Notes: generated from the letters alone by a model not told the origin. A stretch of DNA of 41,228 nucleotides from an uncultured Victivallaceae bacterium (GCA_964440205.1 CAYTRK010000001.1:1-41228), one strand, 5' to 3'; shown: positions 23,493 to 39,449, counted from the stretch's first letter. Translations and numbers: made by a program.

Positions 23493-23885
23493 ATGAGCGA
23501 TGAGAAGAAACATATTCTTCTGGTTGGCACTGAGAAATGCTTTATATCAACGCAGGGCACGAAGCGCCTCTGATATATTCGGCTGAAGGCGCCTTGAAAG
23601 GATCGCTCCCGCCATGCGGTCCTGTTGTAGGGATTATTCCTGACGCTACTTATTCATCCCAGAAGGTTGTCATCGAGAAGAATCACTCGCTGGTTCTGTA
23701 TGCCGATGGCCTTACTGATTCACGTAACGGGCAGGGAAAGGAATATACTTTCGACCGGCTGAAGAAGCTTTGCGGCAATCCGGTTTGATCGGGTGCGGAG
23801 ATGCTGGACATGATCACCTCGGATGTGCAGGGGCACATAGGTGGCGCAGATCAGTTTGATGATCTTACGGCTGTCGTGGCGCCGG
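23493..23885 (+). pseudogene. Remnant of a response-regulator/PP2C (SpoIIE-type) phosphatase gene
   Basis: Three frame-discontinuous pieces. (1) MSDEKKHILLVG (receiver-like start) runs into a stop at ~23570. (2) An 83-aa ORF, LYINAGHEAPLIY...LVLYADGLTDSRN, corresponds to the C-terminal half of a PP2C domain. (3) Another frame after 23788 reads GAEMLDMITSDVQGHIGGADQFDDLTAVVA, the PP2C C-terminal motif. The N-terminal metal-binding half is missing. Confidence 0.6.
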
Positions 23886-23899
23886 ACGGTCTGACCGTT

Positions 23900-25483
23900 T
23901 CAGGGTTTGATCATCTTGAGTGTAAGGATGGTAATGTCGTCAGACTGGGGAGACAGGCCCGCGTGGTGTGTTACTGAATTCATAATTTCCTCGGTTATTT
24001 TGCGTGGGTCTGTATGTCCCGTTTTTTCCAGCGTGGATTGGAGTCTTTTCTCGTAATACATCTCTCTGTTGACATTCATGGCTTCTGTTACGCCGTCTGT
24101 GCAAACGACTATGGTCTCGCCCTGTTGCAATTCAGAGGTAAGGGTCGTATATTTGGCTCCCGGCATTACCCCGAGTACTATGCCTTTCGGAAGTTCGAGT
24201 CGACGCGATGAGTTTTTTGTCTCCATAATCAGGGGCGGGTTGTGACCGGCGTTTGAATACCGGAGTTCGCCTGTCTTGATATTAAGGATTGCGCAGAACA
24301 TTGTAACGAAGAGCAGGCGCTCGTTTTCCTGCGAAAGATCTTCGTTTACGCGATCGAGTATTTCAGCCGGGTTATTGCCTATTTCGTGCGCGGCGCGTTT
24401 CATGAGAGTTATGGTTACAGCCATCATCAGAGCGGCCGGGACACCTTTGTCCGAAACGTCGCCTACGTAGAAGAAGAGGTGATCATCGTCTATCATGTAA
24501 AAATCATAGAGATCCCCTCCGACTTCCTTTGCCGGAACGAGTGTGGCGTACAGATCAAATTCCTTTTTGTCCGGGAAGACTGGAAACAGTTTCTTAAGGA
24601 AACTCATCTGTATGTCATGTGCGATTTTGAGTTCACTCTCAATGCGCTCTTTCGCGGCTGTTGTTTCCTTGAGATTCTTGATGTATTCGAGCAGCCGCGC
24701 AGCCATTGTAGAGAATGCGGAAGCAAGCTGACCGACCTCGTCCTTGTAGACAAGTCCCATCTGGTGCAGTTCGGCGCGCTGTTCCTCCGTGAATTTGAAT
24801 CCGCCTTCGGACAGAACATGGATATACGAAGTCAGCCTGCCGACAGGCTTCAGAATATGGGAAATTACGATATAACTGCATATCCATACCAGCACGGAGA
24901 TGAGCAATCCCAGCCCGACATTGATCATGATGCTGCGATTAAGTTCGTGTGCAATGAAATCGAGGGACACATCGGCGCCGATGATATAGCGGTTTCCGTT
25001 TGCGGTTGTGCGCGGAATAAAAATAGAGCGGAAGAAACCCCATTCGTCTGAATATTCAGCGTATTGGACCGTGCGTGTTTTCCACGCTTTTGTCATTGCC
25101 GCGGGTGGTTGTTCATACTTGGTGAAATAGGGGGTTTCGTTTTCGTTGCGGATCTCGTCTTCTGTTGCGCTTGTCGTTGCGACATAGAACTGTCCCTGGT
25201 ATTTGACATAGGTGTAAAGGTATTTTATGTCAATTTTGTTGGCATACTGGCTCAATTCGCGAAGTATATGTTTGTGTTCTTCGGAAGAGATCGCGTCGGG
25301 AGTCCGGGCTCTATCGTGGAAGCCTTCCGGGATCAGTTTAGGAAGCACAGTTGCTACAGACTCTAATTTGCTGTCGACGCCTTCCAGGAATGCGTTACGC
25401 TGGAGTATGCAGGCGGTAATTGTAAAGGCGATGGTAGCGACAATGTTGATCGCAAAAGCAATCAACAGCATTTTACTCCTCAT
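23900..25483 (-). CDS. Membrane sensor PP2C phosphatase (TM - periplasmic Cache-like domain - TM - HAMP - SpoIIE), RsbU-like
   Basis: All PP2C/SpoIIE motifs are intact: KEVGGDLYDFYMI, YVGDVSDKGVPAALMMAV, YSNAGHNPPLI, VVCTDGVTEA, SDDITILTL. The HAMP-like region is ILKPVGRLTSYIHVLSEG. Start options are ATG 25483, ATG 25471 (GAGGAG upstream) or TTG 25501 (4-nt overlap with the upstream stop). Confidence 0.9.
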   Translation of the reverse strand: MRSKMLLIAFAINIVATIAFTITACILQRNAFLEGVDSKLESVATVLPKLIPEGFHDRARTPDAISSEEHKHILRELSQYANKIDIKYLYTYVKYQGQFYVATTSATEDEIRNENETPYFTKYEQPPAAMTKAWKTRTVQYAEYSDEWGFFRSIFIPRTTANGNRYIIGADVSLDFIAHELNRSIMINVGLGLLISVLVWICSYIVISHILKPVGRLTSYIHVLSEGGFKFTEEQRAELHQMGLVYKDEVGQLASAFSTMAARLLEYIKNLKETTAAKERIESELKIAHDIQMSFLKKLFPVFPDKKEFDLYATLVPAKEVGGDLYDFYMIDDDHLFFYVGDVSDKGVPAALMMAVTITLMKRAAHEIGNNPAEILDRVNEDLSQENERLLFVTMFCAILNIKTGELRYSNAGHNPPLIMETKNSSRRLELPKGIVLGVMPGAKYTTLTSELQQGETIVVCTDGVTEAMNVNREMYYEKRLQSTLEKTGHTDPRKITEEIMNSVTHHAGLSPQSDDITILTLKMIKP

Positions 25484-25497
25484 TGTAAGTCTTTTTC

Positions 25498-26874
25498 TCA
25501 AATCTTATCCTGTCTTTTAAAGTCAATTCTCTTAACCAATAACATCGGAATCTCTTTATGAACAGCATATTGTTGTGCAATCGCTTGAATATTGCGGGCC
25601 AATTCGTCGATATTGTCCTGTGAGTATGTTCTTATGCAGGAATCGAGCTTTTTTCCGGCTTCATTGTCTTCCATGTGGAGAATCACAGTTTTTTCTGCCG
25701 GCTCTGCATCTTCGACATGTATCGACCCGTTCGGGCCGTTGTATTTTACGATTTTGATACTGCCGGTTTCTGCAGAGCATTCGATGCCTGCGATCTTGTC
25801 TATCCTGAAAATTTCCAGGGCTTGTTCAACGGCTTTTTCGATACCATTTATGCTGAGTTTCTGTTTCAGCAGTGCTTCTGCGGCCGATGCCATGATGGCG
25901 GTATCCAGCGGTTTTGTGCCGTGGGAAACAGCTCCAACTATCGCGTATAAGGTGGGGTCATTGTTCGTAATTACGCATATATTTGAAATTTCGTTATCTG
26001 CATGTGCGGTTATACGGATATGGAATGAATCGGTGTCAAGGGCGCGGGTTCTTTTCCTGTTTTGTCTGTAGGCGATTGCCAGATCCTGTTCTGTTCGGAA
26101 CATTTCTACATCCATGAGTTCGCGGCGGGCCCTGACCTCGGTGTCCTTGAATATGCTGGCCGCCGTAAGGAACGTGTTCCAGAGATCATGTATCTCCCGG
26201 ATGCTGCCGGGTGGAGGCATGCTGGTTTTTGTGTCGGAATTGGAGATCGTTTCTACCGACTCGGCGAATGTTCGGATGTTACTTTTGAGCATCTGGCTTA
26301 CGATGAATACGCAAAGCAGGCCCATGCCGAGGGCAACTGCTATACCGCGCGAGATGGTTTTGATTGCCCTGGTTCTGGAAACGGCCAGTGACGATGCGTC
26401 TGTCTTGATCAGAACGTATCCTGCAATATTGTTGTCCGAATCAAGCAGAGGGGAGCAGGAGAATACGACATCGGTGTCTGCGCTATCGCGGGTGATCCTG
26501 GTGATGTTTCCGTCTTGGGCGCGGCATTCTTCAAGCAGAGACTTATCGGGAAGCGGTTTGCCTCTATCTCGGCCTATGTCGAGTATAATCTCCTGCTGAT
26601 CTTTTGTCAGAGCAATTATGCGCAGGGCAGTGCCGTGGCCTGTGACCTTCTTAACCGCGCGGAGCAGGTCGGGTGGGGGCTGCTCGTCGGCTTCAAGGGT
26701 CTGGATGTCTTCGGAAATAAATTCCGTAACCACGACGCAAATGCCCCCTGCTTCCTCCATCAAGCCCCATTTTGTCTCCTTAATTTCCATGATATAGACG
26801 ACAACGGCAGTTGCTGCGGCCAGTACAAGAAATACAGGGAGGATACTGCGGAAACATAGTGTGCGGATATTCAT
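25498..26874 (-). CDS. Membrane sensor protein with degenerate SpoIIE/PP2C-like C-terminal domain
   Basis: 458 aa, with an ATGA overlap with the upstream gene. Two TM helices flank a ~140-aa periplasmic region. The C-terminal region YAIVGAVSHGTKPLDTAIMASAA resembles the GDVSGHG..AA..M motif with Asp replaced, and IKIVKYNGPNGSIHV and IPMLLVKRI occupy the positions of the NAGH and DDITLL motifs. Confidence 0.75.
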   Translation of the reverse strand: MNIRTLCFRSILPVFLVLAAATAVVVYIMEIKETKWGLMEEAGGICVVVTEFISEDIQTLEADEQPPPDLLRAVKKVTGHGTALRIIALTKDQQEIILDIGRDRGKPLPDKSLLEECRAQDGNITRITRDSADTDVVFSCSPLLDSDNNIAGYVLIKTDASSLAVSRTRAIKTISRGIAVALGMGLLCVFIVSQMLKSNIRTFAESVETISNSDTKTSMPPPGSIREIHDLWNTFLTAASIFKDTEVRARRELMDVEMFRTEQDLAIAYRQNRKRTRALDTDSFHIRITAHADNEISNICVITNNDPTLYAIVGAVSHGTKPLDTAIMASAAEALLKQKLSINGIEKAVEQALEIFRIDKIAGIECSAETGSIKIVKYNGPNGSIHVEDAEPAEKTVILHMEDNEAGKKLDSCIRTYSQDNIDELARNIQAIAQQYAVHKEIPMLLVKRIDFKRQDKI

Positions 26875-27281
26875 GCGGAGACGGTTTCCTCTTGTTTGTT
26901 AAGTGTCTCAAGCTGGGGCTCTGCAAGCATATTAAGTATTATGGACGGATGCTGATAGATGATGGTGAAAAATATGCCTCTTTCAAGTATGAGGCAGATT
27001 GCTCCGACCGGCGAAGCAATAATGTCTTCACCAACCTGCATGTCGAGCAGAAGCGATGCCGGACCGAATACCGATGGTGTTCGCCTGTCGGTCCTTGTCT
27101 GAAAAGACCCTTCGATTACGATGTACATGCGGCTTAATTTCTTGCCGGCACTGCAGAACAGTTCGTCCGGTTCGTAGGCTCGTTCTAGGAGTGAATCCGC
27201 TATTCTGGCAATGTCCAGGTCCGAGAGCTCGGAAAAGACGTCAGAACGCTTCAAGGCGAATATCTTTTCTATTATGTTCAC
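26871..27281 (-). CDS. Stand-alone cyclic-nucleotide-binding-like (CNB/CAP-fold) domain protein
   Basis: 136 aa with GTG start and 4-nt overlaps at both ends. CNB-like pattern SDVFSELSDLDIARIADSLLERAYEPDELFCSAGKKLSRMYIVIEGSF...FGPASLL...AICLILERGIF. The phosphate-binding-cassette Glu/Arg are not evident. Confidence 0.65.
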   Translation of the reverse strand: MNIIEKIFALKRSDVFSELSDLDIARIADSLLERAYEPDELFCSAGKKLSRMYIVIEGSFQTRTDRRTPSVFGPASLLLDMQVGEDIIASPVGAICLILERGIFFTIIYQHPSIILNMLAEPQLETLNKQEETVSA

Positions 27282-29419
27282 GGCGCCGCCTTTCTGTTTC
27301 TAAATACACCTATGAATATTTGTCTTCCATCTCTGTTGGTCAGTTCCTTCAGAATAACGCTTATCAGCTCGAATGCCTTTGGCGGATCTGCTTGGTTTTG
27401 CTTCATCAAGAGCATGTTTTTGACCTCATCGCTGATGGTTTCGAGATTGTCCGAAATGATGATCCACTCGATGTCTGTGTTGAGGGGGGTGTGGCCATTG
27501 TTGAGTTGGGTCTCTTCGATTTTGCCGGCTTTAATGGTGAGTGCCGGAACAGGGGTGTCGGTTCGGCAGAATATACCTTTCTCTGAATACGTTACAGTTG
27601 TCTTCAGCGCGGGGTCCGCGGGGTGATCCAGGCCGCCGGATATCATCGCGCATGTTTCACATCTTTTGCCGATCGCATCGATCGCGTTTTCGTGATGATC
27701 TTTCGCGAGCCATGCTACGGTGCGGTCTCCGTTGCTTGCGTATCCTGATGATGTCCGGTGGTCGGAGCTGTCCGTCCATCCGAAAGCCCAATTTTCGCAT
27801 GACTCTTGTGAGCATTGCTGTGTTGATCTGTCGAGCGCTGACAACAGATCATTGTTCATCCTGCGGGCGCCTATGTCGCTGTTGGTGGTTCTGAGGTTAT
27901 GGACGGTCTCCTCCAGTTTCCGGCCGAGTCCATTGAAAGCCGACGAGAGACGTTGCAATTCCGACGGCGTTGTTATTTCGACCTTGTGGCTGTAAACTCC
28001 GGCGGCGATCATGAGCGCGGAGTTTCGCAAGGCTGTAATGGGTTTTATCAGTTTGGCGGAGAACTGTATCGATATGTAACCGGCGCCCAGAGCGGCGCCC
28101 AGAGCGAGCATGCCGAGCGTAAAAAGAGCGAGACGGGTCTTGTTGTTTACAACCGTAATGTTTATGTCTGCGCCAGTCATGGCGGTGATGCTGTCGTCGA
28201 TGTTATAGATAGGCGCGTAAGACACCTTCAGGAGGCCCCATTGGTCGGTGGCTGTTATGTCTCCTATATGTATAACGCCGTAAAGAAGAACACGTTGGGC
28301 GCCGTCGTAGTCCTCGCTGGCGAGTGTGTCTTCGTCACCGATCATGCTTTCCTGGGTGGCGTCGAGAACATAAACGCAGTTTGGTTTTTCCTGAAGAACC
28401 TGGGTATAGAGGTAGGTTAGTCCGGTTCTGTCGAGTATCCTCTTCATCGTCCTGACGTATTTTCTGTACACAGGCGACTGCATATCGTGTGACTTGTATA
28501 TGGCGGCATGCTCTTCGCCCTTAATGAAGCATCCCGTAGAACCGCTCAGGCCAGCAAGTTTCCTGTTAAAGCCGTCAATGATGATATTGTGCAATTGGTT
28601 GTAGAAAATAAAGCCCCAGAACAAAGTCACGACAAGCAGGGCAGGAACGACCAGCAAGAGAACAAAAGTCTGCAGTTTTACGGCGGTACTGTGTGCTGCC
28701 ATGATGTCGTCGCCGTGCGCAGCAGAGAGCAGTTGTATCTGTCGGGCCACAGCGTGGCCTATGAGCCACGACATAATGATTCCGACAAGAGCAATGGCCG
28801 CAGAGACCTGGCTGAGTCGAATTTTCCATGTCCTGATCTCTGCGCGTACATCTTCAATGTACATCCCGGTTCCGATAATCCAGCCCCATGGTCTGAAAAG
28901 TCTTACATAACTTATTTTCGGCACGATACGCGTGGCATCGTCCTGCCATTGCCAGGAGTATTGCACGAAGCCGGCACCGTCTTGGCGGCATACGTTCACG
29001 GCTTCAACGAAAAGGGCTGTACCGTTGGGGTCCCTGAATTTTACAAGATCACTGCCGTCCATTTCCGGCTTATAGGGATGCATAATCATTCTGGGCTGCA
29101 TATCGTTAATCCAGAAGTAATCTTTCATCTCCGGGCCGTAGCGTATGTGTTTGATGAGATTCGCAGCCTGCCGCCTGGCTTCCTGTAGAGGCATGATGCC
29201 TTGTTCTGCCAGAGAATTATGGTGGTTCAATATGCTCCATGCCGTTTCAGTTGCTTCGCGCAGTTTCTCGCGTTTTTTGTTGATAAGAGCTTTTTCGGCA
29301 GTAGGAATGATGACCAGAAAATTAGTAAGTACGAAAAGGGATGTTATGATCAGGCCGCCGATAATGACCTTGGTTGATACCCTGAGGCGTTTCAATATGG
29401 TTTTACCTGCCTGGCTCAT
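27278..29419 (-). CDS. Four-TM double-sensor protein: sCache_2-like domain + second Cache-like domain + HAMP + degenerate PP2C-like C-terminus
   Basis: 713 aa with an ATGA overlap with the upstream gene. sCache_2 signature IRYGPEMKDYFWINDMQPRMIMHPYKPEMDGSDL...GAGFVQYSWQW...WGWIIGTGMYIEDV. The second extracytoplasmic domain (GLTYLYTQV...WGLLKVSYAPI...GADINI) resembles the sensor of the 23900 phosphatase. HAMP-like LIKPITALRNSALMIAAG. The C-terminus has no intact PP2C Asp motifs. Confidence 0.85.
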   Translation of the reverse strand: MSQAGKTILKRLRVSTKVIIGGLIITSLFVLTNFLVIIPTAEKALINKKREKLREATETAWSILNHHNSLAEQGIMPLQEARRQAANLIKHIRYGPEMKDYFWINDMQPRMIMHPYKPEMDGSDLVKFRDPNGTALFVEAVNVCRQDGAGFVQYSWQWQDDATRIVPKISYVRLFRPWGWIIGTGMYIEDVRAEIRTWKIRLSQVSAAIALVGIIMSWLIGHAVARQIQLLSAAHGDDIMAAHSTAVKLQTFVLLLVVPALLVVTLFWGFIFYNQLHNIIIDGFNRKLAGLSGSTGCFIKGEEHAAIYKSHDMQSPVYRKYVRTMKRILDRTGLTYLYTQVLQEKPNCVYVLDATQESMIGDEDTLASEDYDGAQRVLLYGVIHIGDITATDQWGLLKVSYAPIYNIDDSITAMTGADINITVVNNKTRLALFTLGMLALGAALGAGYISIQFSAKLIKPITALRNSALMIAAGVYSHKVEITTPSELQRLSSAFNGLGRKLEETVHNLRTTNSDIGARRMNNDLLSALDRSTQQCSQESCENWAFGWTDSSDHRTSSGYASNGDRTVAWLAKDHHENAIDAIGKRCETCAMISGGLDHPADPALKTTVTYSEKGIFCRTDTPVPALTIKAGKIEETQLNNGHTPLNTDIEWIIISDNLETISDEVKNMLLMKQNQADPPKAFELISVILKELTNRDGRQIFIGVFRNRKAAP

Positions 29420-32400
29420 GCGGGATCCTGCTTATTTCGTGTATTATGCGTGTATGAGAACATTTGTACGACGATTTCCGGGTAAATTCTTGCAGTTTGC
29501 AGAATGCTGTTGCGGGGTATTGCGAGCAGTACAGCGTCTTTTCCGACAGCCTGACTTGTATAGCAATCAAGGCCCCGAAGCAGCTCATCGCCGGCGAGTT
29601 CGTGACAGGATCTTGATATGCCCGTGCCGTTTTTACCGATGCATTCTACGTTGCCTTCCAGAATGACGTAAAGTGTTTCTGCAGGATCCCCCTTGTTGTA
29701 GAGGGCGCCGTTGGGGGCAGAGATTACTTCGGAAGTATTGATTAAAGTTTCAAGCTGGGTAACGCGTATATCGCGGAAGAACTTTGCCTTTGTCAGGCAG
29801 TAAGCTTTTTCCATGGGGTTGAGCTGCAGGCTGTCTTTGTCTTGCGGTGAAGTCTCGTTCAGCAGAGCGAATATTGCTTCGGAGATCATCATGTCGGCAT
29901 TACCGATATTATGCTTCATTATTTCTCTCAACGCGGCACGGCAGATGGGGTCATCAGGTTGGTAGTTCAGTCGCCATGCGGCTTGCAATGCAGAGGCTTG
30001 TTCAACAGGAATTCTGCTTGAGCAGCTTTTCAGCAGGACGTCGGATACGGAAAGGGGTTTATAATCGAAGTTATCCCTGTAGAAGGTAATTGTATCGCTC
30101 ACGGGCCGTGCATCAAGCAAGGGCAGAAGCATTCCAAACGTTTTTCTACTGCATCCCTGTTCAATTGTCTCTATGGCATTTGCCCGCTCCTTCGCATTGC
30201 GTGATCGCAGGAATACTGCGAGCATCTCAAAGTCGGGAAGCCGGCCTGCAATGGTTAGTGTTTTCAGCACGAAATCGATTATAGCTGACTGAGTATCCCT
30301 GTATACGCGCGCGAGAAATTCCAGCGCGGGTATTGATGTTGAATGCCCGGAGATTATCCAATGTGCGTTAATGTATTGATATGCCTTTTCTATCGCATCG
30401 AAAATAAGCTCGTCAGCCACTGCTTCGAACTGCGGGAATGAAAGAATGCCGAGTGTCTGGGTCGCAACTGATTTGTTGGCGAAAGTGACGTCCGGGTCTC
30501 TGAGTATTGAGATAAGTGAGGGGACGCTGCTCAGTCCCGTTTTTAGAACGATCTCCTCCACACGTTTTTTCTCGGGAGGGGTAAACCCGGATGTCATGTT
30601 GATAAGAGGCCTGATGCAGGATGGGTTTGCTATGGCTTCCAGGGCATCAAAACCGCGGTCTCGCAGTCTGCCGTCATCGCGGCTGACAAAATCAATGATT
30701 GGCGGCACAAGGCGTTCGGATGACGGGCCGACCAGCATGGATATTGATTTTATGGCCTGCTCCCGTACGGACTGTGAATCGTATGTCAGAAATTCGGCAA
30801 GGAAGTGTGCGTATTTGGTATTGCCGGAGGATTCTACAATTTGCATGGCCGCGATTTTCTCGCTGTCGGCCCCCGTCATAAAATCACTTGCCACCTGCAT
30901 GGATGTGAGGCCCTCTGTCGGTTTCCAGCTTCGCCACCTGGCGATAGCGGCAGCAGTCTGATGTGCGATCGCGGGGTCTTCTGAGAGTGTTTGTATTTCC
31001 TGTTGGCTTAACATGTTGTATCGTGCGCATATTTCGAGCAGGCGGGAAGATACCTGCATGCGTTTATCGTTCAGCCATTGCAGCACCTTTCTGCGTCGTA
31101 TGCTGTTATCATTCTGAAGAACGATTTCAAATAAGTCTACTGCCGATTCGGGTGGATCCATGCTGTGAGCGGACATAAAATCAAGAAACATGTCGAGCGC
31201 TTTATTTTTGTCGTTGAGCCAATAGATGGCTATGGCCGACACGGCATGAGCCGGGTTCGGCGAGCGTGTTTCTTTTTCTAACGAATCCAATTCTTTGTTG
31301 TCCAGCATGGCCAGGCGGTTTCGCTCAGAGCGGGAGAAATTAAGCCATGTTTTCTTAAGGCTGTAGAGCATGGATGTGAGGTAATGGGCTCTCAGTCCGA
31401 ATATGGAACACAGTGCGATAGCCGTACCCGCAAGTCCTATCAGCGACAACGTTTGTGCGCTGAGTCTGGGGGCTAACATAACCAGAAAGAGTCCTGCTGA
31501 TGCTGTCGCCAGCGGTTCGCATAATCCCTCGATGAATGTACGGACCTGCGCCTTATCTCTGGCTGGTATGGCATTGAATAGAAAGTTCTGGTTATTGTAC
31601 TCCACGGATGTCAGTACGCCCTGATAGGCGAAAAAGCCGGCAACCGCCGCGCCGAAACCGTAGTCCAGCAGAAAGTAGCTGAAGGTAACGGCATAGACCA
31701 CAGGCTGTATCAGCGTAACATTTCTTACTCCCATAAATGCCACAAGCCGGTTGAAGACAAAAAGGTTGATGAGAATATTAAGTCCGTTCACGCCGGTATA
31801 GAGCTTGCCGAAAAGTGAGGCTACTTCAGCTTCGGTCCGGTTCTGTTCGAAGATCTGCATATACTGGAACTCGCAGAGAGTGGTAATCATCAGTGTTGTC
31901 AGGAATGCCAGGATCATGAAGTTAGTATAACGTGATTCGCGGAGAATGGCGTACAGGCGAGAGATCTGCTCGCGAAAAGACGGTAGTTCTTTTGTTGTAA
32001 GGGCCTCTTCTTCGCTTATCTTATGCCAGTGTTTCCTGAGGCGGAAGACCACTGGAAATGCCGCAAGCACCAGGGCTGACCACACCAGAAACAGGTGCTG
32101 AACATTTACAAACTGAATGAGTGTTACAACAATGCTGCCGCCTATCATTGTGCCGAACGCCATTCCTGCGCTCATGAAGCTGAACAGCCTTTTTGCGTCT
32201 AGTATGTGGAAATAGCAGTCTATAAAGTTCCATAGCAGTGTATAGAGAGCTATGTACCACAGTGTTGTGTAAAGCTTGGCCACATAGTACAACAGTGCGG
32301 GGGGCGCATCGCAGCCCGGTATAAGCCCCGGCGATAGAAGTATGTAGAGGGCTGCGCCTCCGGCTATAAGTGTGCACATGGTGATGTATAGCAGTCGGTC

Positions 32401-32637
32401 TATACCGAGCCTGTTGGTCAGGTACGCGAAAGCCGGTATGTAGATCAGCATGATGAACGGGGTGGCCATATAGATGAAGGGAAGTTTGTCTGCGCCGACA
32501 TGGATCAGGAACAGTGCGTCGGCACAGCTTATGCCTACCGCGAGCCCTGCCTGCAGTATTGCGGCAAGAAGGGCGAAGCTGAGAACTTTTTTCCCTTCGC
32601 CCGGATGTATTTTTAAAAGTTGCTGCAGCTTTTCCAA
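29416..32637 (-). CDS. 1073-aa fusion: TLC/ATP:ADP-antiporter-like polytopic transporter + HEAT repeats + C-terminal CNB-like domain
   Basis: The N-terminal ~440 aa have ~12 TM helices, with a start typical of TLC-like carriers (LLKIHPGEGKKVLSFALLAAILQAGLAVGISCADALFL). The middle has HEAT-like repeats (DSQSVREQAIKSISMLVG..., SRDDGRLRDRGFDALEAIANPSCIRPL, RSRNAKERANAIETIEQG). The C-terminus reads FFRDIRVTQLETLI...GDPAETLYVILEGNVECIG...LAGDELL...AVLLAIPRNSI. Confidence 0.85.
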   Translation of the reverse strand: MEKLQQLLKIHPGEGKKVLSFALLAAILQAGLAVGISCADALFLIHVGADKLPFIYMATPFIMLIYIPAFAYLTNRLGIDRLLYITMCTLIAGGAALYILLSPGLIPGCDAPPALLYYVAKLYTTLWYIALYTLLWNFIDCYFHILDAKRLFSFMSAGMAFGTMIGGSIVVTLIQFVNVQHLFLVWSALVLAAFPVVFRLRKHWHKISEEEALTTKELPSFREQISRLYAILRESRYTNFMILAFLTTLMITTLCEFQYMQIFEQNRTEAEVASLFGKLYTGVNGLNILINLFVFNRLVAFMGVRNVTLIQPVVYAVTFSYFLLDYGFGAAVAGFFAYQGVLTSVEYNNQNFLFNAIPARDKAQVRTFIEGLCEPLATASAGLFLVMLAPRLSAQTLSLIGLAGTAIALCSIFGLRAHYLTSMLYSLKKTWLNFSRSERNRLAMLDNKELDSLEKETRSPNPAHAVSAIAIYWLNDKNKALDMFLDFMSAHSMDPPESAVDLFEIVLQNDNSIRRRKVLQWLNDKRMQVSSRLLEICARYNMLSQQEIQTLSEDPAIAHQTAAAIARWRSWKPTEGLTSMQVASDFMTGADSEKIAAMQIVESSGNTKYAHFLAEFLTYDSQSVREQAIKSISMLVGPSSERLVPPIIDFVSRDDGRLRDRGFDALEAIANPSCIRPLINMTSGFTPPEKKRVEEIVLKTGLSSVPSLISILRDPDVTFANKSVATQTLGILSFPQFEAVADELIFDAIEKAYQYINAHWIISGHSTSIPALEFLARVYRDTQSAIIDFVLKTLTIAGRLPDFEMLAVFLRSRNAKERANAIETIEQGCSRKTFGMLLPLLDARPVSDTITFYRDNFDYKPLSVSDVLLKSCSSRIPVEQASALQAAWRLNYQPDDPICRAALREIMKHNIGNADMMISEAIFALLNETSPQDKDSLQLNPMEKAYCLTKAKFFRDIRVTQLETLINTSEVISAPNGALYNKGDPAETLYVILEGNVECIGKNGTGISRSCHELAGDELLRGLDCYTSQAVGKDAVLLAIPRNSILQTARIYPEIVVQMFSYTHNTRNKQDPA

Positions 32638-32639
32638 CG

Positions 32640-33329
32640 TCAGTCTCTTGATTTTGAAAGCGAGAACACGTGGCTGATATGTTCATGTTCCTCGTCTCTG
32701 AATCCCGGGTGCGGCGGTTCCCGCCACGTGTAAACTGTGTTTGCATCAATGTTGAATCCCTCGTCCCGGAGAATCTCTGATATCTCATTCTCTTCCCAGA
32801 ACCGGTAAAGGTATTGCTCTTTGTAAAGAAAGGTCATGTCGGAAAAGGGGGTCATGTTCTTGCCGGCAATTCCGTCATTCCCGCCGGGGATGTTGCATAT
32901 CATTCTTCCGCCGGCCGCGAGGATCCGGTATATTTCCTGCAATGCAGGACGGGGATTCTCGAAAGTTTCGAAGACATCACAGAGAAGGACGAGATCAAAC
33001 GAACCTGATCGATAAGGCATGCGGATCAAGCTGCATTGAGCGCAGAAGACCTTCTCCCTGACTTCGGGAGAAATTTTATTAAGCGCGTTAATGGAGGAGT
33101 CGCAGGCGTGCAGAGTCGCATTGGTGTTGAGCAGTAGTTTCAGGTGTCGCCCTTCGCCTGTGCCTGCGTCCAGCACGCGCGATTGTGCATTAGGGATGCC
33201 TTTGAGCCGATCCAGTTCGGGTTGCAGAAAGGGAACCGGTACATTGCCCCAGATTTTTTTAATGCTTGTGCTGTATAGCGCGTTCCATGCATTGATGGAG
33301 ACGTCGTTTATGTTTTTGCTGCTTTTCAT
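32640..33329 (-). CDS. Class I SAM-dependent methyltransferase
   Basis: 229 aa with motif I RVLDAGTGEGRHL. Post-I/II motifs LHACDSS and FDLVLLCDVFE, then LAAGGRMI. Confidence 0.88.
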   Translation of the reverse strand: MKSSKNINDVSINAWNALYSTSIKKIWGNVPVPFLQPELDRLKGIPNAQSRVLDAGTGEGRHLKLLLNTNATLHACDSSINALNKISPEVREKVFCAQCSLIRMPYRSGSFDLVLLCDVFETFENPRPALQEIYRILAAGGRMICNIPGGNDGIAGKNMTPFSDMTFLYKEQYLYRFWEENEISEILRDEGFNIDANTVYTWREPPHPGFRDEEHEHISHVFSLSKSRD

Positions 33330-33345
33330 AAAATCTGCTTCCTTT

Positions 33346-34542
33346 TCAGGGAACCATTTTTTCCAGGAAAGATCCTCTGCAGCAATGGTTGGAACTCATC
33401 GAACTTCCATAGCCGCCCGCGTTTAGCAAGGCGAGATAATCACCCTCTTTGACAGGTGAAAGCAAGATATTCCTGCCGAAAACATCAAGTGCTTCGTTGA
33501 TATTGCCTGCTATTGTTACTCTTTGCTTTGAGCCGGGACGCGGCCGGCAGGGCACAACATGCAGGGGAAGGTTGTAGAAGGCGGGTTCGATATGTATATT
33601 AAAACCTGCGTTTACGCCCACAAAAAGCGTATCTTGTCGCTGTTCTACGGTGTTTATCTGTACGATAAGGATTCCTGCGTCTTTGACAATGTAGTCGCCG
33701 GGTTCCACCCATAAGTTGACTTCTCTGCGCTGTAAATGTTTCTCCATAAGGGAGGACCATGCTTCAAGGTCCAGCGGTTTATCATTTTGGCTGAGTGGAA
33801 CGCCGAGGCCGCCGCCTATGTTCAAGTGATCAACATCGGGGAACATGTTGATGAAAGAAAGCAGTCCCTGCAGTATGCTCTCCATATTGTCAAGGTCGCC
33901 GTTCAGATAGCCGCAGCCGCAGTGAAAATGAATGCCTGATATTTTAAGCCCGTGATTTTCGGCCAGATCACGTGCTTCCTCAATACGGTCGTAATATATG
34001 CCGAATTTAGTCGTATTGCCGCCCGAATATCTCAGGAGTTTGTTCTGTTGATAACCAAGGCCGATGTCCGGGTTGATTCTGATTCCGATGGAACGGGGGC
34101 CGCCGATGGCGGCAAATCTGCGCATCATGCTCAGGGAATCGCAGTTCACGTATATATCCGGCTTGCCGGAAAGGAAGCGAAGATCGGCATCGGAAAGGGA
34201 TGTTCCCGTATAAGATATATCCTGTTCCTTAAACCCGCAGGCCAGCGCCAGCTTGACTTCGCCGGGCGAGCAGGCATCAATACCGCATAGATCCGTATGC
34301 TTTATAAGGTCCAGGACTTTTTCAAAGCGATTGGCTTTCATGGCATAAAACAGCCTGAAATCAAGGGTACGCTTCTTTAATGCTTTTGTGAGTCTTTCAA
34401 TATTTTCCTGGATGCGCTTTCTGCTATATAAATAGAGTGGTATTCCGGCCTGTGCAGCGAGTTCATCAGGTCGTATTCCGTCGAAAAACAGTCCATGTTC
34501 GTCGAGGCCTAATTCAGGCTTTTGCCACCATTGATTGTTCAT
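33346..34542 (-). CDS. PLP-dependent group IV decarboxylase (Orn/DAP/Arg decarboxylase fold; LysA/NspC-like, substrate unknown)
   Basis: 398 aa. PLP-Lys motif RLFYAMKANRFEKV, then HLNIGGGLGVP, WVEPGDYIVKDAG and NAGGYGSSMSSNHCCRG. Confidence 0.9.
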   Translation of the reverse strand: MNNQWWQKPELGLDEHGLFFDGIRPDELAAQAGIPLYLYSRKRIQENIERLTKALKKRTLDFRLFYAMKANRFEKVLDLIKHTDLCGIDACSPGEVKLALACGFKEQDISYTGTSLSDADLRFLSGKPDIYVNCDSLSMMRRFAAIGGPRSIGIRINPDIGLGYQQNKLLRYSGGNTTKFGIYYDRIEEARDLAENHGLKISGIHFHCGCGYLNGDLDNMESILQGLLSFINMFPDVDHLNIGGGLGVPLSQNDKPLDLEAWSSLMEKHLQRREVNLWVEPGDYIVKDAGILIVQINTVEQRQDTLFVGVNAGFNIHIEPAFYNLPLHVVPCRPRPGSKQRVTIAGNINEALDVFGRNILLSPVKEGDYLALLNAGGYGSSMSSNHCCRGSFLEKMVP

Positions 34543-36554: not shown

Positions 36555-36890
36555 ATGAAAATAGAAAACAGAGAGAAGGATGGCATTGCGATCGTATCTA
36601 TATCGGGCGAAATAGACAGCAAGACGGCTCCAGATGCGCAGGAAAAGCTTCTGCCCCTGGTGGATCAGTATCACTCGATGATTATGGATCTTAACGATCT
36701 CACTTTCATGTCCAGCGCCGGCCTGAGGATTATGCTTCTGCTGTACAGACATGCTACCGCCCAGAGCGGGAAAGTGGCTCTCGTCGGTTTGTCCGAGCAG
36801 ATACAGGATACGATGTCGGCTACCGGGTTTCTGAGTTTCTTTGATTTATCAGACAGCATTGACGAAGCTATGGACGCTGTTAAAGAATGA
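36555..36890 (+). CDS. STAS-domain anti-sigma-factor antagonist (RsbV/SpoIIAA-like)
   Basis: 111 aa. IAIVSISGEIDSKTAPDAQEKL...MIMDLNDLTFMSSAGLRIMLLLY carries the conserved phosphorylatable-Ser context, then KVALVGLSEQIQDTMSATGF. Confidence 0.9.
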   Translation: MKIENREKDGIAIVSISGEIDSKTAPDAQEKLLPLVDQYHSMIMDLNDLTFMSSAGLRIMLLLYRHATAQSGKVALVGLSEQIQDTMSATGFLSFFDLSDSIDEAMDAVKE

Positions 36891-39029: not shown

Positions 39030-39449
39030 ATGAAGACGCAGACTTTTCCCGGGGTGCTTGATTCACTGACGCCCGTTCGAGACTTTGTCAAAGCTTCGGC
39101 GCTTGAGGCCGGACTTTCGGAACCGTCTGTCTACAAGTTGATTCTTGCGGTCGACGAGCTGGTCACCAACTCAATTAAGTACGGTTATGCCGACAACAAC
39201 ATCAGCGGTGATATTGTGGTGGCCGTTGACTGCGATGGTGATGAATTTGTGGTAACTCTGGAAGACACGGCTCCGCCTTTTGATCCGCGCGAGAGCTCTC
39301 TTCCGACAAAGGACGATATGGCAGCGCCCCTTGATGAGCGTGACATCGGAGGGCTTGGAATATTTCTGGCCATGAGCGAGGTCGACCGTTTTGATTACCG
39401 CAGAACCGGGACCTCTAATGTTAGTGAACTCGCGATGCAGATCGAATAA
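39030..39449 (+). CDS. RsbW/SpoIIAB-like anti-sigma-type serine protein kinase (HATPase_c_2)
   Basis: 139 aa, 8 nt after the glgX stop. N-box DELVTNSIKYGY, G-box-like DIGGLGIFLAMSEVD, and the size typical of this family. Confidence 0.85.
   Translation: MKTQTFPGVLDSLTPVRDFVKASALEAGLSEPSVYKLILAVDELVTNSIKYGYADNNISGDIVVAVDCDGDEFVVTLEDTAPPFDPRESSLPTKDDMAAPLDERDIGGLGIFLAMSEVDRFDYRRTGTSNVSELAMQIE

Follow-up and report, generated by a model that had tools for sequence, protein, structure and literature searches.

Bacterial pseudophosphatases of the PP2C type are known from very few cases, namely E. coli RssB and Chlamydia CT589. The latter, a membrane paralog of RsbU, has lost its metal ligands, and an interaction with RsbU has been proposed for it (PMC5177608). 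Its role is still poorly understood, partly because attempts at gene manipulation in Chlamydia failed. In RsbU-type PP2Cs, including HAMP-linked ones, crossing linker helices dimerize the catalytic domains through an alpha0-alpha2 switch, which leads to activation, and the pseudo-phosphatase domain of E. coli RssB re-uses the linker and the switch elements as an adaptor (PMC12143880). Here we analyze two membrane sensors of 458 and 713 amino acids (aa) that are encoded in the same gene module as an active 533-aa sensor phosphatase in an uncultured Victivallaceae bacterium (GCA_964440205.1 CAYTRK010000001.1:1-41228). This whole stretch of 41,228 nt is referred to as the window, and all coordinates are counted from its first letter. 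An initial annotation had suggested that both sensors carry PP2C-like domains with replaced catalytic aspartates and may serve as non-catalytic partners of the phosphatase.

Profile alignments and predicted structures together show that the C-terminal domains of the two sensors derive from an RsbU/SpoIIE-type phosphatase whose binuclear metal site has been lost. Because the PP2C fold is kept while the metal-binding residues are lost, both proteins are probably non-catalytic regulators. The closest precedent is the CT588/CT589 pair of Chlamydia, which we compared by its published description.

PP2C-like folds in the two sensors

The 458-aa protein is encoded on the minus strand (25498-26874). 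Based on its open reading frame (ORF), its AlphaFold2 (AF2) model and Foldseek matches, it is composed of a transmembrane segment, a periplasmic PDC/sCache-like domain, a second transmembrane segment, a HAMP domain, a linker helix and a pseudo-PP2C domain. The family to which it belongs comprises 191 representative clusters at 50% identity, nearly all of them 430-480 aa long (HMMER search of 1.84 billion representatives), and 87 members were aligned for residue counts and for the AF2 model. No domain of the 458-aa protein was matched by Pfam or NCBIfam, and none of the 87 aligned members matched a SpoIIE/PP2C model of Pfam at E≤0.01. The PDB profile search with the family retrieved only the DcuS/CitA-type PDC domain (3by8, 1p0z) and HAMP. 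Genome searches were equally sparse: a k-mer homolog search returned the query alone, the order-level search yielded one full-length homolog (in genome G020), and most matches of the full-length profile at the phylum level were merely to the transmembrane and HAMP segments.

The relationship to PP2C emerged from profile and structure comparisons. BLASTP of the 458-aa protein against the active enzyme was not significant, and its best segment (E=2) paired GAVSHG...MASA with GDVSDKG...MMA. When the C-terminal 209 residues of the family were compared with 122 active PP2C domains using hhalign, 180 collinear columns were aligned (E=7e-5, probability 63%), with ISN facing GGD, GAV facing GDV, and HME facing CTD. 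Both the BLASTP segment and the hhalign alignment agree with motifs that had been aligned by eye in the initial annotation; its pairing of YNGPNGS with NAGHNPP is not supported by hhalign. The AF2 model, which shows long transmembrane helices, has a mean predicted local distance difference test score (pLDDT) of 90.1. Its C-terminus was matched best in the PDB by RsbX (3w40; Foldseek E=4.5e-6, TM-score 0.64, root mean square deviation 3.4 Å over 215 columns), followed at the domain level by the stressosome-associated phosphatase 3zt9, the RsbU domain of Rv1364c (3ke6), 6ihu and SpoIIE (5ucg). The best domain-level matches are thus all PPM phosphatases. Matches to GAF domains were dismissed given their root mean square deviation of about 20 Å. 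The hhalign and AF2/Foldseek results therefore confirm, at the level of alignment and model, a PP2C/PPM fold in the C-terminal domain of this protein (residues ~275-450; 25525-26052, minus strand). The periplasmic PDC domain (residues ~35-165; 26380-26772, minus strand) is DcuS/CitA-like according to the PDB profiles and to Foldseek matches with 1p0z, 3by8 and 4ywz.

The 713-aa protein (27278-29419, minus strand) is a larger sensor in which a transmembrane segment, an sCache_2 domain, two further transmembrane segments, a second periplasmic domain, another transmembrane segment, HAMP (Pfam matches to sCache_2, E=2e-38, and HAMP) and a linker helix precede the pseudo-PP2C domain (residues ~540-710; 27290-27802, minus strand; AF2 and Foldseek). 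Its last ~200 residues were matched by neither Pfam nor NCBIfam. A k-mer search returned the query alone, and no further C-termini of this type were found in a sample of 400 genomes of the phylum. A search for related loci in genome contigs collected mostly unrelated sensors, drawn by the common sCache_2 motif. Since direct searches with the C-terminus gave no relatives, we sought orthologs through synteny, starting from the closest relatives of the active PP2C, whose contigs keep the same gene order. A metagenome scan for module loci contributed just a few more. This gave 13 syntenic loci and an alignment of 14 distinct C-terminal sequences.

With this alignment, the AF2 model of residues 500-713 reached a pLDDT of 78.8 and a predicted template modeling score of 0.75. 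The best 50 Foldseek matches in the PDB were all PP2C/PPM structures, led by SpoIIE (5ucg, E=7e-5) and including 3pu9, 6ihu, MsPP, SiaA, tPphA, PstP, HAB1 and RssB. At the profile level, hhalign of the 713 family against the active PP2C was not significant (E=0.16), and the comparison with the 458 family aligned 185 collinear columns (E=0.002). We consider it very likely from the model that this C-terminal domain has a PP2C/PPM fold. The claim that both sensors carry PP2C-like domains is thus borne out by the Foldseek comparison proposed for the two C-termini, which retrieves PPM phosphatases with either AF2 model.

The copy of the 713-aa protein in the window lacks a segment of 14-20 residues (at residues ~595-606) that all orthologs present at the place of the PP2C switch helix alpha2, and is therefore more eroded than its relatives. 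The family is further divided into two clades, one with loci L033, L034, L121, L123 and L005 and the other with the window, L027, L028, L030, L032, L035, L122 and L124. One clade combines an N-terminal sCache_2 domain with an Asp at the TDG position and a Gln at the DD position; in the other, the N-terminal domain is of the dCache_3/sCache_3 type and neither residue is kept. By sequence comparison, the family has exchanged its first sensor domain and conserved the remainder of the protein.

Loss of the metal site and conservation of the paralogs

The 533-aa protein is, by sequence, a bona fide HAMP-SpoIIE phosphatase (PF07228, E=2e-50), in agreement with the catalytic motifs that had been recognized in the gene at 23900. 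All five aspartates of the motifs GGD, GDVS, TDG and DD are present (D330, D348, D469, D521 and D522), and they are kept in 13/13 syntenic loci. In the hhalign alignment, D330, D348 and D469 correspond to N298, A315 and E402 of the 458-aa protein, and the DD motif before the last strand corresponds, as placed by strand register, to I442-P443. Across the 87 aligned members of the 458 family, position D_I is still an Asp in 24, a relic of G-D-F. D_II is Arg or Lys in 49 members and Asp in none, D_III is Leu or Phe in 64, and D_IV is Gly in 73. His400 is conserved in 62 members. The 458-like proteins of the syntenic loci present an Asp at none of the metal positions.

For the 713 family, global-mode hhalign against PP2C gave a meaningless alignment that was discarded, and residues were therefore mapped by motif and strand register. 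The candidate metal positions placed in this way are Y560, K573, D657 and R699/Q700. No 713-like protein of the 13 loci has an acidic residue at D_I or D_IV, and at D_II a single one has Asp and another one Glu. The TDG position is an Asp in 8/13 loci, including D657 of the window (IIISD). This Asp is confined to the sCache_2 clade, within which Q700 is invariant.

By sequence, the full metal site is absent from both proteins, with none of four aspartates in the 458-aa protein and at most one of four in the 713-aa protein. The suggestion that the metal-binding aspartates are not retained thus stands for the former and needs correction for the latter, which appears to keep the D657 of TDG. With neither protein having a complete metal site, their designation as candidate pseudophosphatases is well founded.

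The three paralogs also differ in how they are conserved. Mean identity of the PP2C-like domain over the 13 loci is 62% for the active enzyme, 23% for the 458-aa family and 20% for the 713-aa family, and identity of the linker helix is 80%, 37% and 24%, respectively. The PP2C-like domains are the fastest-evolving parts of the pseudo-sensors, whose ORFs are intact in 13/13 loci. Low conservation of these domains in intact ORFs is the pattern expected for a scaffold that is kept without its active site. The stretch between HAMP and the PP2C core, which as measured includes loops, spans 78, 83 and 73-78 residues in the three paralogs. In the active enzyme, the linker helix that joins HAMP to the catalytic domain (residues 272-305; 24587-24688) is more conserved than the catalytic domain itself (80% against 62%), which is consistent with the linker being a regulatory element of the active PP2C.

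The active phosphatase, its probable partner switch and the module

The 533-aa sensor phosphatase (23900-25501, minus strand) consists of a periplasmic domain, HAMP and a SpoIIE/RsbU-type PP2C domain. In the assembled genome, which is 79% complete, we found one SpoIIE-type PP2C gene and one decayed remnant, and no enzyme of the PP2C_2 type. The proposal of a single active PP2C holds for this assembly. The window also contains the sole STAS match of the assembled genome, an RsbV-like protein (36555-36890, plus strand; PF01740, E=2.8e-22), and the sole stand-alone RsbW-like switch kinase (39030-39449, plus strand; HATPase_c_2, PF13581, E=1.6e-22). All three components of a potential partner switch therefore lie within the window. 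The STAS and kinase genes lie 11-14 kb from the intact HAMP-PP2C gene, on either side of an isoamylase gene just upstream of the module, and together with an AGE-like gene these genes adjoin the module. The STAS/kinase neighbors recur beside the module in several related loci. From what is known of RsbU/RsbV/RsbW systems, dephosphorylation of the STAS protein by the 533-aa enzyme is the simplest pathway. The STAS protein retains the Ser-Ser of the phospho-acceptor motif (FMSSAGL) and is a likely substrate of the active PP2C.

The decayed remnant (23493-23885, plus strand) lies tail-to-tail with the active PP2C gene. It encodes the C-terminal half of a SpoIIE domain (NAGH, YADGLTD, DDLT), is interrupted by a TGA at 23789 and is preceded by a receiver-like start (MSDEKKHILLVG). 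It is probably what is left of a response-regulator-PP2C gene.

The module itself consists of five minus-strand genes at 23900-32637, joined by 4-bp overlaps and encoding, in order, proteins of 1073, 713, 136, 458 and 533 aa. The first (29416-32637, minus strand) combines an MFS/TLC-like transporter, HEAT repeats and a C-terminal cNMP-binding-like domain, according to sub-threshold Pfam matches to MFS_1, TLC, HEAT_2 and cNMP_binding. The 136-aa protein (26871-27281, minus strand) is cytoplasmic with a weak cyclic-nucleotide-binding (CNB)-like signal (PF00027, E=0.002, below the cut-off). Its gene sits between the two pseudo-sensor genes in 13/13 syntenic loci, with a mean identity of 41%, and the 1073-aa gene leads the module, 5' of the sensors, in those related loci that extend that far. 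This arrangement (MFS-HEAT-CNB giant, Cache pseudo-sensor, mini-CNB, PDC pseudo-sensor, HAMP-PP2C) is complete in every syntenic locus that we examined, and genome G020, from the same order, carries the same module gene order.

The sensory parts of the module fit the three extra periplasmic inputs that had been suggested: the 713-aa protein contributes its sCache_2 domain and a further periplasmic domain, and the 458-aa protein its PDC domain. The sCache_2 domain is located at 28832-29308 (minus strand; PF17200, E=2.4e-38; PF08269, E=4e-39). The second periplasmic domain (28130-28597, minus strand) has no Pfam model and a mean identity of 46% over the syntenic loci. In BLASTP (2e-8), residues 278-530 of the 713-aa protein, which include it, resemble residues 36-296 of the 533-aa protein, where the active PP2C has its N-terminal sensor and HAMP. 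The homologous domain of the 533-aa protein (24932-25399) is likewise not covered by Pfam, and the two share conserved TYLYT and WGLLK motifs. By sequence, this looks like an unannotated sensor domain.

Several loci present variations of the module or its surroundings. In L034 (7787-9362), a hipA/helix-turn-helix (HipBA-like) toxin-antitoxin pair is inserted between the gene of the 460-aa pseudo-sensor and the PP2C gene, which breaks the tight module. In the metagenome contig L122 (6061-8222), the 713-aa gene has an ortholog that is divided between two overlapping ORFs, one for a 260-aa sCache_2 part and the other for the remaining 460 aa. This arrangement, a frameshift or else a natural split, suggests that the first sensor domain can be separated as a module. 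Directly upstream of the module in the window (32640-34542, minus strand) are genes for a class I methyltransferase and a pyridoxal phosphate-dependent decarboxylase of the Orn/DAP/Arg type. These neighbors recur in several, though not all, of the related loci (L027, L030, L122).

Possible roles of the pseudo-sensors and relation to known systems

Taking the residue comparisons, the models and the analogy with described systems together, the best reading is that the pseudo-sensors are catalytically dead and regulate a single partner switch without catalysis, and we hold this to be reasonably probable. The pseudo-sensors would feed extra periplasmic signals to the switch by binding rather than by catalysis. 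Each may form a homodimer in which ligand binding repositions the pseudo-PP2C domain through HAMP and the linker. This domain would hold STAS or phospho-STAS at the membrane without dephosphorylating it, and the held protein could either be kept in competition with the active phosphatase and the kinase or be handed over to them. Such sequestration of STAS is the mechanism that we favor from the sequences, if only tentatively.

Arg or Lys is frequent where members of the 458 family once had the metal pocket, which would fit a phosphate-binding trap. In a bolder form of this idea, both the 458-aa family and the smaller 713-aa one would constitute a widespread, unannotated class of receptors that trap the phosphoserine of STAS as a phospho-substrate. 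The PP2C metal pocket would then have been rebuilt for binding without hydrolysis, as the Arg/Lys at D_II (49/87) and the conserved His might suggest. We find both the class and the rebuilding of its pocket doubtful. If true, periplasmic ligands would control a partner switch through regulated membrane sequestration, a signaling logic distinct from control by kinase and phosphatase, and one that would explain CT589 too.

Several observations weigh against non-catalytic regulation by binding. Within their proteins, the pseudo-domains show the lowest conservation, which is awkward for a specific, conserved binding surface, and the D_II Arg/Lys that makes the phosphate trap attractive is an Ala in the 458-aa protein of the window. 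The 713-aa model was built from an alignment of 14 sequences and its Foldseek TM-scores are just 0.45-0.52. The assignment of D_IV and all residue equivalences of the 713 family were derived from motif and strand register rather than from a superposition. Given D657 in the 713-aa protein and E402 in the 458-aa protein, binding of a single metal is faintly possible. Finally, with a genome that is 79% complete, further PP2C, STAS or kinase genes may exist.

Nearly as likely as sequestration, judging from the same sequences, is a pairing of the pseudo-domains with the active PP2C via the switch-helix interface that would tune its activation. In full, the pseudo-sensors would form mixed dimers or oligomers with the 533-aa phosphatase via their transmembrane/HAMP segments, crossing linker helices and the alpha0-alpha2 interface, and a ligand on any of the three extra periplasmic domains would switch the single catalytic domain on or off. 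We regard such heteromeric gating as a possibility, on the unlikely side. It is favored by the layout of HAMP, long helix and PP2C fold common to all three proteins, by genes that are translationally coupled and co-conserved in 13/13 loci, and by the homology of HAMP and the second periplasmic domain in the 713-aa protein to their counterparts in the active enzyme. It is also established that RsbU-type PP2Cs are activated by dimerization (PMC12143880), and CT589 has been proposed to interact with RsbU (PMC5177608). However, identity across loci is 80% for the active linker and 24-37% for the linkers of the pseudo-sensors. This weighs mildly against a canonical mixed dimer, because the partner helices of one coiled coil would be expected to be equally constrained. 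The absence of the alpha2 segment from the 713-aa copy of the window points in the same direction.

Alternatively, the pseudo-PP2C domains might bind another partner within the module, either the 136-aa CNB-like protein or the CNB/HEAT part of the 1073-aa protein, and thereby control transport or second-messenger sensing instead of the STAS switch, much as RssB re-used a PP2C remnant. The constant position of the 136-aa gene between the pseudo-sensor genes and of the giant gene at the head of the module is consistent with such an independent output, for which RssB provides a precedent of a PP2C remnant turned adaptor (PMC12143880). Yet the active PP2C is equally conserved in the module and the STAS/kinase pair adjoins it in several loci, and we consider this explanation unlikely.

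That the two proteins retain an enzymatic function, be it weak phosphatase activity at a non-canonical or single-metal site or a new activity on the PP2C scaffold, appears very improbable. D657 in 8/13 of the 713-like proteins with the invariant Q700 of that clade, as well as His400 (62/87) and the D_II Arg/Lys (49/87) of the 458 family, could be taken in its favor, but the proteins have at most one of the four metal ligands and no alternative constellation of polar residues is conserved. Moreover, a domain identity of 20-23% against 62% in the active enzyme is typical of a scaffold and not of an active site. Finally, we give hardly any credence to the C-terminal regions being a chance alpha/beta sandwich or a modeling artifact: the Pfam, NCBIfam and PDB profile searches detect no PP2C, hhalign of the 713 family against PP2C is not significant and the TM-scores of its model are modest, but two independently built models both retrieve PP2C as the best domain-level matches, the 458 family aligns with E=7e-5 and collinear motifs, the G-D-F relic of GGD[FLY] survives in 24/87 of its members, and the domains follow HAMP and a linker helix, just as the PP2C domain of the active paralog does.

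Non-catalytic regulation of one partner switch can be compared with several described systems. RsbU, SpoIIE, RsbX and SiaA (PF07228) present the same fold, the same placement after HAMP and a long helical linker, and the same genomic association with STAS/RsbW genes. In contrast to these enzymes, the 458-aa and 713-aa proteins lack the metal-binding Asp set and neither scores against PF07228. At the level of the gene neighborhood, the icfG-type cluster of Synechocystis (AGE-like, STAS, GlgX, PP2C and RsbW-like kinase) resembles the window, where AGE-like, STAS, isoamylase and RsbW-like kinase genes are found by the module and the 533-aa PP2C would take the role of IcfG. We know of no report of membrane pseudo-PP2C sensors for an icfG-type cluster.

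RssB shares with the pseudo-sensors an RsbU-type PP2C domain that has lost catalysis and has been kept as a regulatory or binding module, in which the linker and alpha1/alpha2 are still important (PMC12143880). RssB is, however, a cytoplasmic protein with an N-terminal receiver that delivers sigma-S to ClpXP, whereas the proteins of the window are membrane Cache/PDC-HAMP sensors. Indeed, no Response_reg domain was matched by Pfam in the 458-aa or 713-aa protein.

The likeness to CT589 is closer. In both systems, a transmembrane and periplasmic part is followed by a cytoplasmic PP2C-like domain without the Mn2+/Mg2+-coordinating residues, and an active RsbU-type sensor phosphatase of a STAS/RsbW partner switch exists as a paralog. 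CT589 is numbered next to RsbU (CT588); the 458-aa gene overlaps the active gene by 4 bp and is syntenic in 13 loci, with STAS/RsbW-like genes in the window. A dead PP2C paralog beside an active membrane RsbU is therefore an already known kind of arrangement, which our results indicate also occurs, with more than one dead paralog, in a conserved module outside Chlamydia. The two systems differ in that CT589 still matches the InterPro PP2C signature (PMC5177608) whereas the 458-aa and 713-aa domains escape Pfam and NCBIfam. They also differ in that two unrelated-looking pseudo-sensor families, a transporter-HEAT-CNB giant and a mini-CNB protein are combined here in one module. What is new is thus the invisibility of the pseudo-domains to Pfam/NCBIfam, the large size of the 458-aa family and the presence of two pseudo-sensor families in one module, and an annotation can now be offered for unrecognized proteins that include the ~190 clusters of the 458-aa family. 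The phosphatase and the two pseudo-sensors, together with one STAS protein and one kinase, represent a minimal system that could be rebuilt in E. coli, and they offer a route to test how pseudophosphatases bring extra signals into partner switches.

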